A DNA stretch of 11,449 nt from a virus (lineage: Duplodnaviria > Heunggongvirae > Uroviricota > Caudoviricetes). Location of the stretch: the IMG/VR virus record IMGVR_UViG_2703718771_000002; one strand, 5' to 3'. Under the pieces are notes generated by a model. That model was given only the letters and a program-made list of their open reading frames with translations. It had not been told where the DNA came from and searched no databases. The translations under genes were made by a program, and so were the position numbers. This document shows positions 1 through 1,644 of the stretch, in pieces (within the stretch, counting starts at the first letter, position 1; each line of letters begins with the position of its first letter).

Positions 1-826
1 CTCTCCAGGAAAACCGGGGCGGTTCACGCGCCCAGCCTTCGTCATCCATCGATGCAGGATTTCGCAGTACGCTAACCGACATCCTCCCGGCGTTGGCAAT
101 GCTTCGCTCTGCAATCTGCAATGCGCTCATTTCCATTGAGAAAATCAATACCCCGCGCCGGACGTCAGAACCAGGAATAACGCGGCTTGCCACACCTTCG
201 GCAATCTTCAGCGCCAGTTCGGTTTTCCCCATACCAGGACGAGCGGCGATAATCACCAGGTCTTCCGCGTTCATCCCTCCGGTGATGACATCAAGTTCTT
301 CGATTCCGGTCTTCAGGGTATCTGACTCTTCTCCGTTCCTCAGGCGCCTGTCAAGCGTGTCAGTGTAGTCAGTGATGATTTCCCCTAACCGTACAGGTTT
401 AACCTCGTCACGGGGCTTTCTGATGGCTGAAAGACGCTTTACAAGCTCGTCCATCGCCTGACTCGATGTATCGATGGTTCCTCTCTGAATTGGTTCACGC
501 ATTTCGTCCATGATTTCCAGCACCAGACGGCGGTGATAGTTATCCGCGACCATTCCGGCATATCCCTTCAGGTTTGCGGCGCTCGGGCAGTTTTTGCTGG
601 TCATCAGGATTGACGTGAAATGCTCCTCTCCGCACGCCTCGGCAACCATCAGCGCGTCGATTAGGTTTCTGTTTCTCGCCTGCTTGCGGATAACCTCGAA
701 GGCTTTCCGGTAGAGCGGAATTGAAAACGCTTCCGGCTCAAGCGTTGCCAGAACGTCACTGGCAGTTGGTGTTAATCCACCAATCAGCAGGCCACCGATA
801 ACGCTCGCTTCGATATCCTGTCTCAT
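1..826 (-). CDS. DnaB-type replicative helicase, phage-encoded (partial; 3-prime end lies beyond the left edge of the window)
   Basis: Minus-strand ORF starting at ATG (complement of 824-826) and open to position 1. My translation begins [17 protein letters not shown] and contains a Walker A-like motif [11 protein letters not shown], as in the DnaB N-terminal domain and P-loop. The start overlaps the upstream O-like stop as ATGA (stop 823-825). Not in the supplied ORF track because it is truncated. Confidence 0.75.
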
Positions 827-1644
827 GCTATCCCCCTGTCTGCAAACTTCCCTTCCCGAACTCCCGTTAACGAATCTTCTCTCAGCAGGTAATCAAAATC
901 AGCCGTCCAGCCCGTGTCGTTGTCTCCGAAGTAAAACGGCTTGGCCTGATGCACAAACGCCCTGACATACGCTCTGAAACCGTCCACGTTTGGCGTTTTC
1001 AGTTGTGGGATGATTTTCTTCAGGCGGCGTTTGCGTTTCTCGTTGACCGCAACAGCGTGTGGCAGTCTGTCACCGACTTCGGTGTTGTAGGCGTTCAGGA
1101 AGGATTCGTAGTCGATTCGTTCTGCCTTGCGACGTTCAGGTTTAACCTGCCCATCGCCGCCCCCGTTAGGGGGTAAGGGGGTATTTGTATTTATTGTCTT
1201 TTGTATATTGTCTTTTGTGTTTAGCTGACTTGGCTTATACCCATTAGCCGACTTGGCTAATGTTTTATTAGCTGTTTTAGCTAATGTTAAGCTGTCCTGG
1301 CTAATCCACTGCGAAACCACCTTGTTCACTCCGATTTTCACGCCATCAGCAATGAGGAATTTTCGCTCAATAAGCTGGCGCTTGGCAGCGCAAACATGAG
1401 TGTGATGAATACCTGTCATGGCTGCTATCTGCGTGTTTGTGAGTCGATCCATCGGCTTATTGAATCCGTATGTCTTGCGCATGATAGCGAGCATCACCTT
1501 CAACTGCCGGACGGTTAAATCAGCCATCAGCAGACTGTCGGTAATCTCGTTAGCAACGCGCATGAAACCATCTTCGGTATCTGCCACGCGATGCTCCACG
1601 ACCTCCAGTTGAGGCCTGTAATCAGCTAACTTAACGACGCCCAT
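823..1644 (-). CDS. O: Replication initiator, lambda O-like (N-terminal iteron-binding domain, G/P-rich linker, divergent C-terminal domain)
   Basis: 273-aa ORF. The N-terminal segment ([38 protein letters not shown]) resembles lambda O as I recall it (ADLTKRQFKVLLAILRKTYGWNKPMDRITDSQLSEIT). SD GCAGGAG lies 6 nt upstream of the ATG at 1644. The gene contains the iteron array below. Confidence 0.85.
1181..1220. other. AT-rich DNA-unwinding region of the origin, with tandem ATTGTCTTTTGT 12-mers
   Basis: ATTGTCTTTTGT occurs at 1193-1204 and 1207-1218 in a T-rich tract. It lies immediately after the iterons in the direction of O transcription, the same arrangement as lambda ori. It is flanked at 1156-1180 by a G/C-rich tract that encodes a [11 protein letters not shown] linker. 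Confidence 0.5.
1221..1304. repeat. Replication origin iterons inside the O-like gene: four ~17-bp repeats of form TTAGCYGAYTTGGCTAA
   Basis: Copies at 1221-1237 TTAGCTGACTTGGCTTA, 1244-1260 TTAGCCGACTTGGCTAA, 1268-1284 TTAGCTGTTTTAGCTAA, 1288-1304 TAAGCTGTCCTGGCTAA. Start-to-start spacing is 23, 24 and 20 bp. Each copy has internal dyad symmetry (TTAGC...GCTAA), as in lambda ori iterons. Confidence 0.7.

Follow-up and report, generated by a model that had tools for sequence, protein, structure and literature searches.

The replication genes of phage P22 comprise gene 18, which carries four iterons, and gene 12, the product of which, gp12, is a DnaB-type helicase (PMC8022706). This arrangement has been described for P22 since 1984 (Wickner 1984, cited in PMC8022706). 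Gene 18 is annotated to end at position 5304 of P22 and gene 12 to start at 5301, resulting in a 4-bp overlap. In lambda, the same overlap joins the initiator gene O to the second gene of the module, which encodes the loader P. In O157 prophages, DnaB-family 'elongation proteins' represent one of three known types of replication module (PMC2669165). IS629 has been described as a main driver of Stx-phage diversification, and its disruption of prophage genes is well documented (PMC4587872).

Here, we analyzed a stretch of 11,449 nucleotides from a virus of the Caudoviricetes (IMG/VR record IMGVR_UViG_2703718771_000002), in the following referred to as the window. An earlier reading based on the letters of the DNA (the sequence-only reading) had assigned positions 1-1644 to an O-like initiator paired with a DnaB-type helicase. 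This assignment holds from position 27 onward, whereas bases 1-26 belong to neither gene and form the terminal inverted repeat of an insertion sequence (IS). Positions 1-1644 very probably represent a replication module of the P22/HK97/HK544 type from a lambdoid E. coli prophage, in which the helicase gene has been cut by an IS and which is most likely replication-defective. The module as such is already known and very common, and the present copy is ordinary and probably defective. The arrangement is not unusual: it has been described for P22 and O157 prophages, and the corresponding DNA of many phages is 98% identical.

An O-like initiator with a gp18-type C-terminal domain

The gene at 823..1644 on the minus strand is intact and encodes a protein of 273 aa, which was identified by Pfam, NCBIfam and PHROG as an O-like replication initiator of the P22 gp18 / HK97 gp54 type. 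Residues 19-113 (1306..1590, minus strand) cover the complete Pfam model PF04492 Phage_rep_O (model positions 1-95 of 95, E=5.8e-33, 113.7 bits against a cut-off of 28.7) and represent the O-type N-terminal origin-binding domain. The NCBIfam model TIGR01610 phage_O_Nterm was matched as well (E=5e-28, 97.4 bits against a cut-off of 45.5), and PHROG 345 'replication initiation O-like' spans the full-length protein (E=3e-105). A public collection lists this exact protein in 9,921 blocks.

The initiator is 42% identical to lambda O over residues 17-149, that is, in the N-terminal domain. Past residue ~150, no local similarity to lambda O was detected and a forced global alignment yielded 18%; a P-binding C-terminal domain of the lambda O type is lacking. 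In contrast, the initiator is 51% identical to P22 gp18 over 259 aa (E=7e-98), and its C-terminal domain (codons ~161-273; 826..1164, minus strand), which was assigned to the gp18 type by this similarity, is 56% identical to that of gp18. Neither Pfam (E<=10) nor a PDB sequence search returned anything meaningful for the C-terminal domain; weak links to PHROG families pointed to 'DnaD-like helicase loader' and 'replication initiation protein'. The domain is the putative helicase-recruiting part of the initiator. A single-sequence AlphaFold2 model of the initiator was unusable (mean pLDDT 38, pTM 0.23).

A putative origin inside the initiator gene

A repeat search identified four iterons of ~19 bp each and of the type ATTAGCC-N5-GGCTAAT at 1220..1306, which show internal dyad symmetry and are spaced 20-24 bp from start to start. 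The iterons adjoin an AT-rich tract at 1181..1222 (79% A+T compared to 53% for the window). The former are presumed to be the initiator-binding part of an origin and the latter is presumed to be the DNA-unwinding element. In the P22 ori, the corresponding stretch is identical to this tract and the bases that follow (ACACAAAAGACAATATACAAAAGACAATAAATACAAATACCCCCTTACCC). The putative origin is embedded in the initiator's own coding sequence, as is characteristic of lambda O-type initiators, and is placed like the annotated ori of P22 gene 18 and the iterons of lambda O. An Rfam scan of the whole window yielded no family at the gathering score.

With lambda O/P, the locus thus shares a dyad-symmetric origin of four iterons and an AT-rich tract within the initiator gene as well as the 4-bp gene overlap, and with P22 the architecture, the ATGA overlap and the four iterons inside the initiator gene. 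However, the iterons read TTAGCC-N5-GGCTAA in the window and TTTACC-N5-GGTAAA in P22, and the N-terminal DNA-binding domain of P22 gp18 is only 41% identical to that of the initiator. Because of these two differences, the origin specificity is expected to differ from that of P22.

A coupled DnaB-type helicase gene

The initiator gene is joined to the downstream gene by an ATGA overlap at 823..826 on the minus strand (TCAT on the plus strand), in which the helicase ATG (826..824) and the initiator TGA (825..823) are interlocked. A Shine-Dalgarno-like GGGGGA (831..836, minus strand), designated as such by consensus resemblance, lies 4 nt upstream of the ATG inside the end of the initiator gene, the upstream sequence being GAAGTTTGCAGACAGGGGGATAGCATG. 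The same 4-bp overlap was found in all ten of ten loci with an identical initiator.

By Pfam and alignments, the downstream gene (27..826, minus strand) is the 5' part, codons 1-267 of 458, of a gene for a DnaB-family replicative helicase of the P22 gp12 / HK97 gp55 type. The DnaB N-terminal domain (PF00772) was matched at residues 3-95 (E=2e-13) and DnaB_C at residues 171-266 (E=1e-21), and P22 gp12 is 87% identical over the encoded part. The Walker A motif (P-loop) ARPGMGKT, read from the sequence at residues 195-202 (221..244, minus strand), aligns via the homologue of phage HK544 with the P-loop AARPSMGKT of E. coli DnaB. Whereas the second gene of lambda encodes the P loader, the product of the second gene in the window shows no similarity to lambda P; the identity of this product as a lambda P- or DnaC-type loader was ruled out by the DnaB domains and the identity to gp12. 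Thus, the main elements of the sequence-only reading, namely an initiator with a lambda O-like N-terminal domain, a downstream DnaB-family helicase with an intact Walker A, ATGA coupling of the two genes and a P22 gene 18/gene 12 rather than a lambda O/P arrangement, were all borne out by the domain searches and by the alignments to gp12, gp18 and DnaB that it had proposed.

The full-length HK544 homologue can be aligned end to end with E. coli DnaB (residues 5-427, E=1e-66; PDB 6bbm, 6qel), with conservation of Walker A, Walker B and the arginine-finger region. In this homologue, Walker B corresponds to D313 and the arginine finger to R411. Both positions lie past R267, the residue at which the alignments of the window copy to P22 gp12 and to the HK544 helicase stop. 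What is kept therefore extends from the N-terminal domain through the linker into the RecA-like domain, of which the first ~95 residues are present, while Walker B, the DNA-binding loops and the arginine finger of a complete helicase of ~458 aa are lacking. In line with this, the NCBIfam DnaB/phage_DnaB models were covered over ~4-263 of their 421-435 positions, and the DnaB score of 133 bits stays below the full-length cut-off of 385. Compared to E. coli DnaB, the window copy is phage-encoded, comprises residues 1-267 only and is not adjoined by a gene for a DnaC- or lambda P-type loader.

Related modules and gene neighborhood

HK544 and mEp213, both with genes of the HK97 gp54/gp55 type, and many Stx phages are 98.0-98.4% identical to the window at the DNA level over positions 25-1800; the Stx-converting phages sharing the module include 1717, Nil2, 2851 and Stx2a_WGPS4/6/8. 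Given this identity and the E-values above, the matches of initiator and helicase are far beyond chance. Compared to HK544, 3 of the 273 initiator residues are exchanged, as are 3 of 267 in the helicase (99% identical); the order of the genes (cII, small ORF, O-like gene, helicase) and the 4-bp overlap are the same. The helicases of HK544, mEp213 and the Stx phages are complete with 458 aa, whereas the window copy matches them up to codon 267.

The small ORF (1631..1792, minus strand) encodes a conserved HK97 gp53-like protein of 53 aa (phrog_1331, E=1e-37, unknown function). It overlaps the start of the initiator gene by 14 nt, is part of the same transcription unit, is annotated in HK544 and was found in 9 of the 10 loci with an identical initiator. 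Genes for cII, a Cro-like protein and an S24 repressor adjoin the replication module. The closest relative of the window is a prophage located beside sbcB in E. coli 2013C-4974, which is 99.6% identical over 25-11449.

The helicase gene ends at the terminus of an IS3-family element

Positions 1..26 (plus strand) were identified by exact 26-mer matches as the right terminal inverted repeat, i.e., the last 26 nt (...GGTTCA), of an IS629-like insertion sequence of the IS3 family. The reverse complement of this segment, TGAACCGCCCCGGTTTTCCTGGAGAG, agrees with the terminal inverted repeat of IS629-like IS3-family elements, 5'-TGAACCGCCCCGG...-3' with TG...CA ends. Exact copies of the 26-mer were found in other genomes, in 54 stretches with different flanking DNA; each copy is the terminus of the same element, with conserved IS sequence before and unrelated sequence after it, and one contig of 1,310 bp represents the whole IS and ends in the 26-mer. 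This exact-terminus variant was found in Phytobacter, Escherichia sp., Shigella flexneri, E. coli and on a Klebsiella plasmid; the one full copy retrieved shares 82% identity with the IS that is common in E. coli. The ends of PGAP-annotated IS3-family elements in E. coli, of the IS629 / IS1203 type known from E. coli and Shigella, match positions 1-26 at 25 of 26 bases.

The same boundary is apparent from the phage side. In all matching records, 657 from E. coli and 197 from phages, the match to the window starts at position 25-27. Positions 1-26 match no helicase homologue, and helicase homology stops after codon 267. The helicase frame continues through the repeat and runs off the start of the window, so that its last eight residues (EPPRFSWR) are IS-encoded; at the point where intact relatives read ...GWAR-VANG..., the frame of the window departs into other residues. 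By its sequence, the helicase gene is cut not just by the edge of the window: after codon 267 of 458, it gives way to the end of an IS3-family element. The sequence-only reading had regarded the helicase as partial at the end of the window and had expected its 3' end to be recovered from the adjacent sequence. With an IS at the junction, the adjacent sequence would instead yield the IS, of which the window shows only the last 26 nt. The IS body with the transposase genes and their programmed frameshift, the second inverted repeat and the 3-bp target duplication would be expected left of position 1.

The exact 47-nt junction between IS and helicase gene had no match in collections of genomes, viral sequences or metagenome contigs, and a megablast search of positions 1-90 against 5,426 complete E. 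coli genomes returned no record spanning the junction. E. coli O157:H7 TT12A, the annotation of which pointed to a split helicase, was considered as a second case of the same IS insertion, but it carries a rearranged or duplicated helicase region with no IS at this site and is thus not comparable.

Alternative explanations of the locus

If the helicase were incomplete only through the end of the window, the locus would harbor an intact and functional P22-type initiator/helicase pair. The 5' 800 bp of the gene are indeed undamaged and encode a protein that is 99% identical to the intact HK544 helicase, and an intact helicase of 458 aa follows the identical initiator in nine of ten loci. Yet positions 1-26 constitute an exact IS terminus that is unmatched in any helicase homologue, and the frame leaves that of the intact helicase right at the junction, which renders this explanation highly improbable. 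Only slightly less improbable is an assembly or chimeric artefact, such as the fusion of a contig end with a repeat k-mer, with an intact helicase gene in the actual genome. Such an origin would fit the start of the window exactly within an IS terminus, a typical break point of short-read contigs, and the absence of the junction from the 5,426 complete E. coli genomes and the other collections. However, contigs break at an IS end because a real IS abuts that sequence, the same pattern is displayed by Phytobacter and Escherichia contigs at true insertion sites, and the break point and the canonical ...GGTTCA terminus coincide exactly. A host-DnaB-dependent module of the lambda O/P type, or of O and a DnaC-type loader, can be practically dismissed: the initiator does have an O-like N-terminal domain and ATGA coupling also occurs in lambda O/P, but the second gene encodes the N- and C-terminal domains of DnaB without any similarity to lambda P, and the initiator and lambda O have unrelated C-terminal domains.

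A further explanation concerns the sequence beyond the junction. An IS-mediated deletion may have eliminated the remaining helicase codons, and perhaps the nin, Q, lysis and structural genes as well, so that only a remnant of the prophage is left. We regard this as a real possibility, albeit an unlikely one. In the closest relative, 2013C-4974, an IS of the same family is inserted in the same gene and in the same orientation, 323 bp deeper, and an IS-adjacent deletion from a 2013C-4974-like ancestor would give a junction like the one observed. Against this, one base of the visible IS end is not shared with the IS in 2013C-4974 (A vs C at window position 13), and identity to 2013C-4974 drops to 97.7% in the replication region (25-1800) compared to 99.6% for the whole window, suggesting a separate history of this segment and an independent insertion.

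Proposed function of the module and consequences of its interruption

Our preferred reading remains that of a P22/HK97/HK544-type module with an IS-cut helicase gene, in which transcription from the early-right promoter runs leftward (minus strand) and reaches the module behind cro, cII and the small ORF. By analogy with lambda and P22, the O-type N-terminal domain of the initiator would, in an intact module, bind the four iterons within its own gene and destabilise the adjacent AT-rich tract, and the gp18-type C-terminal domain may recruit the phage's own hexameric DnaB-type helicase. A direct interaction of the gp18-gp12 type is suggested by the gene arrangement and by the example of lambda. 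The phage helicase, produced from the ATGA-coupled gene, would replace both host DnaB and a lambda P loader, and the host primase and polymerase III would act after the helicase step.

The sequence-only reading had concluded that replication is independent of the loading of host DnaB by P. Self-sufficient replication can, however, not be assumed for the present copy, in which Walker B (D313) and R411 are missing. With its helicase interrupted by the IS, the prophage would most likely be unable to replicate alone after induction. An exception may arise where a co-resident prophage with the same module could supply the helicase.

For annotation, the helicase gene is to be treated as a pseudogene cut by an IS629-like element, and the prophage should consequently be scored as replication-defective or helper-dependent. 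As the junction is absent from all collections searched, it could serve as a strain marker. Finally, the fragment of 267 aa, which retains the N-terminal domain, the linker and Walker A and has a short IS-encoded tail, might still be made through translational coupling to the intact upstream gene and act, as a dominant-negative subunit or as a decoy titrating the initiator, against phages with the same module, although we consider this a long shot. If true, the IS-cut prophage would represent an exclusion element against co-resident or superinfecting phages and not plain debris.

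A P22-type initiator and helicase pair

The minus strand of window 823..1644 encodes a replication initiator of 273 aa, in which residues 19-113 cover the Pfam Phage_rep_O model completely (E=5.8e-33). Further matches were to TIGR01610 and, across the entire protein, to PHROG 345 'replication initiation O-like' (E=3e-105). Immediately downstream on the same strand, a gene for a DnaB-family helicase starts with the ATG at 826..824, overlapping the initiator TGA in an ATGA at 823-826 (TCAT on the plus strand); a ribosome-binding-like motif, GGGGGA, lies 4 nt upstream of this ATG. 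Domain matches in the helicase product were the DnaB N-terminal domain (aa 3-95) and, at aa 171-266, the first part of the RecA-like DnaB C-terminal domain, in which the Walker A motif, ARPGMGKT (aa 195-202; window 221-244), is intact. All of these elements, which had been proposed in the sequence-only reading, are therefore present.

The same reading had placed the pair with P22 18/12, and the comparisons bear this out. Over 267 aa, the helicase fragment shares 87% identity with P22 gp12; with the helicase of Escherichia phage HK544 the figure is 99%. The full-length HK544 homologue (458 aa) could be aligned with E. coli DnaB (PDB 6bbm, E=1e-66) across residues 5-427. The fragment showed no similarity to lambda P, and neither a P-type nor a DnaC-type loader was found in its place. 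The initiator shares 51% identity with P22 gp18. By segment, its N-terminal domain shares about 41% identity with gp18 and about 40% with lambda O. In the C-terminal domain (aa 161-273), identity to gp18 is 56%, whereas lambda O gave no local BLASTP match and 18% identity when a global alignment was forced; judged by sequence, this domain is unrelated to lambda O, which supports the proposal that it is suited to the phage helicase. Pfam and PDB sequence searches found neither a family nor a solved structure for the gp18-type C-terminal domain, its PHROG links to 'DnaD-like helicase loader' families were weak, and single-sequence structure prediction of the initiator (pLDDT 38) was unusable.

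The arrangement is not unusual. The P22 18/12 pair has long been described (PMC8022706), and Asadulghani et al. distinguished lambda-P-type, DnaC-type and DnaB-family 'elongation proteins' among the prophages of O157 Sakai (PMC2669165). HK544, mEp213 and many Stx phages show 98% DNA identity to the module, and their records already annotate 'replication protein O' and a 'DnaB analogue'; the public collection indexes the exact initiator protein in 9,921 blocks. The replication module is thus already known and contains nothing new. Nine of ten inspected loci encoding the identical initiator carry the intact 458-aa helicase with the same overlap. A small conserved ORF of 53 aa (1631-1792, minus strand; HK97 gp53-like, phrog_1331, function unknown), which shares a 14-nt overlap with the initiator start, likewise occurs in 9/10 of these loci.

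Truncation of the helicase gene by an insertion sequence

The sequence-only reading had taken the helicase gene to be cut merely by the window edge. However, phage and E. coli helicase matches all start at window 25-27, never at 1, and the alignment with HK544 breaks at the same position. The reverse complement of window 1-26, TGAACCGCCCCGGTTTTCCTGGAGAG, agrees at 25/26 positions with the right terminus of 1.3-kb elements in two E. coli genomes, which PGAP annotates as IS3-family transposase elements with programmed frameshift. Exact copies of the 26-mer were present in 54 stretches of other genomes (Phytobacter, Escherichia sp., Shigella flexneri, E. coli and a Klebsiella plasmid), each with conserved IS sequence before and unrelated DNA after it, and one 1,310-bp contig consists of the entire IS, ending in the exact 26-mer. 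An IS629-like element therefore contributes its terminal inverted repeat as window 1-26 and interrupts the helicase gene, of 458 codons, after codon 267 (R267). The interpretation from sequence was thus partly supported: the type was right, but the pair is a common one and its helicase is truncated by an IS.

IS sequence encodes the final eight residues of the open frame, EPPRFSWR. Walker B (D313) and the arginine finger (R411), as positioned in the full-length homologue, lie beyond R267, and the NCBIfam DnaB models were matched over only the first ~263 positions with a score far below cut-off. From what is established on DnaB-family motifs, we infer that the fragment cannot act as a hexameric helicase motor.

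The junction was found in no other record among complete E. coli genomes and genome, viral and metagenome contig collections. It is new to these collections but an ordinary kind of event, as disruption of prophage genes by IS629-type elements is well known (PMC4587872). In the closest complete genome, E. coli 2013C-4974 (99.6% identity over window 25-11449), the prophage adjoins sbcB and its helicase gene is likewise split by a same-family IS3-family element in the same orientation (NZ_CP027587.1, 2113-4802), 323 bp deeper in the gene (after about codon 375) and with target duplication AAT. Frameshifts are annotated there in the O-like gene (14-bp insertion) and in the Rad52-type gene, both of which the window carries in intact form.

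The window junction could have arisen by an independent insertion, in which case the IS entered this helicase gene repeatedly, or by a deletion next to an IS. An independent insertion is favoured by the visible IS end, which differs in one base from the IS of 2013C-4974, and by the replication segment (window 25-1800), which is only 97.7% identical to that genome (27 mismatches and one 14-bp gap) compared to 99.6% overall. This segment is closer to HK544 and Stx phages (98.0-98.4%), which points to exchange of the replication module as a mosaic.

Among the ten loci with identical initiator, that of GCA_021462025.1 (CP061253.1, 6819-8196) has the helicase split into ORFs of 251 aa and 206 aa with size unchanged, apparently by point mutation or frameshift; here the same gene has been inactivated once more, independently. 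The helicase region is rearranged in the wrbA-integrated prophage of E. coli O157:H7 TT12A (2926-5319), where a second, nearly full DnaB-like gene comes after a partial DnaB N-terminal pseudogene and no IS lies at the window's insertion site.

Origin and lambdoid surroundings

Four repeats of ~19 bp with internal dyad symmetry (ATTAGCC-N5-GGCTAAT type), spaced 20-24 bp, lie inside the initiator gene (1220-1306) and adjoin a 79% A+T tract (1181-1222). An origin within the initiator gene is the layout of lambda and P22 (PMC8022706). The annotated P22 ori has the same AT-rich tract and following sequence in its corresponding part, whereas its iterons are different (TTTACC-N5-GGTAAA).

The surroundings of the module are those of a typical lambdoid early region, with cII (1825-2121) and a Cro-like HTH protein (2263-2478) on the minus strand and an S24/LexA-type repressor (2547-3248) on the plus strand. 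A strong terminator-like hairpin of 12 pairs followed by a T-run (1849-1876, plus strand, antisense to the cII 3' end) matched no Rfam family but occupies the position of the oop antisense RNA terminator in lambda and P22. Between repressor and leftward early genes, window 3250-3750 and 4290-4900 yielded no convincing ORF and presumably represent a pL/nutL-type control region and N-like antiterminator region. According to annotations of near-identical loci, the plus strand further carries a recombination module (6335-8419) that is not lambda Red, comprising a Rad52/Rad22-type annealing protein (6335-7042), an SSB (7043-7549), an Rv2179c-like 3'-5' exonuclease (7558-8106) and an anti-RecBCD protein (8123-8419).

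Expected function and state of the module

By homology with lambda and P22, both proteins of an intact module would be made from early-right transcription, the helicase through translational coupling to the initiator gene; the initiator N-terminal domain would bind the iterons and open the AT-rich tract. The gp18-type C-terminal domain may then recruit the phage DnaB-type helicase in place of host DnaB and a P- or DnaC-type loader, and host primase would work with this helicase, as described for P22 gp12 (Wickner 1984, cited in PMC8022706).

This copy has an intact initiator and origin but a truncated helicase, and the prophage is probably defective in replication unless a co-resident related prophage provides the helicase. 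Such supply is plausible because up to 6 places per E. coli genome match window 1-3300, the replication and immunity region, and interaction among defective O157 prophages is known (PMC2669165).
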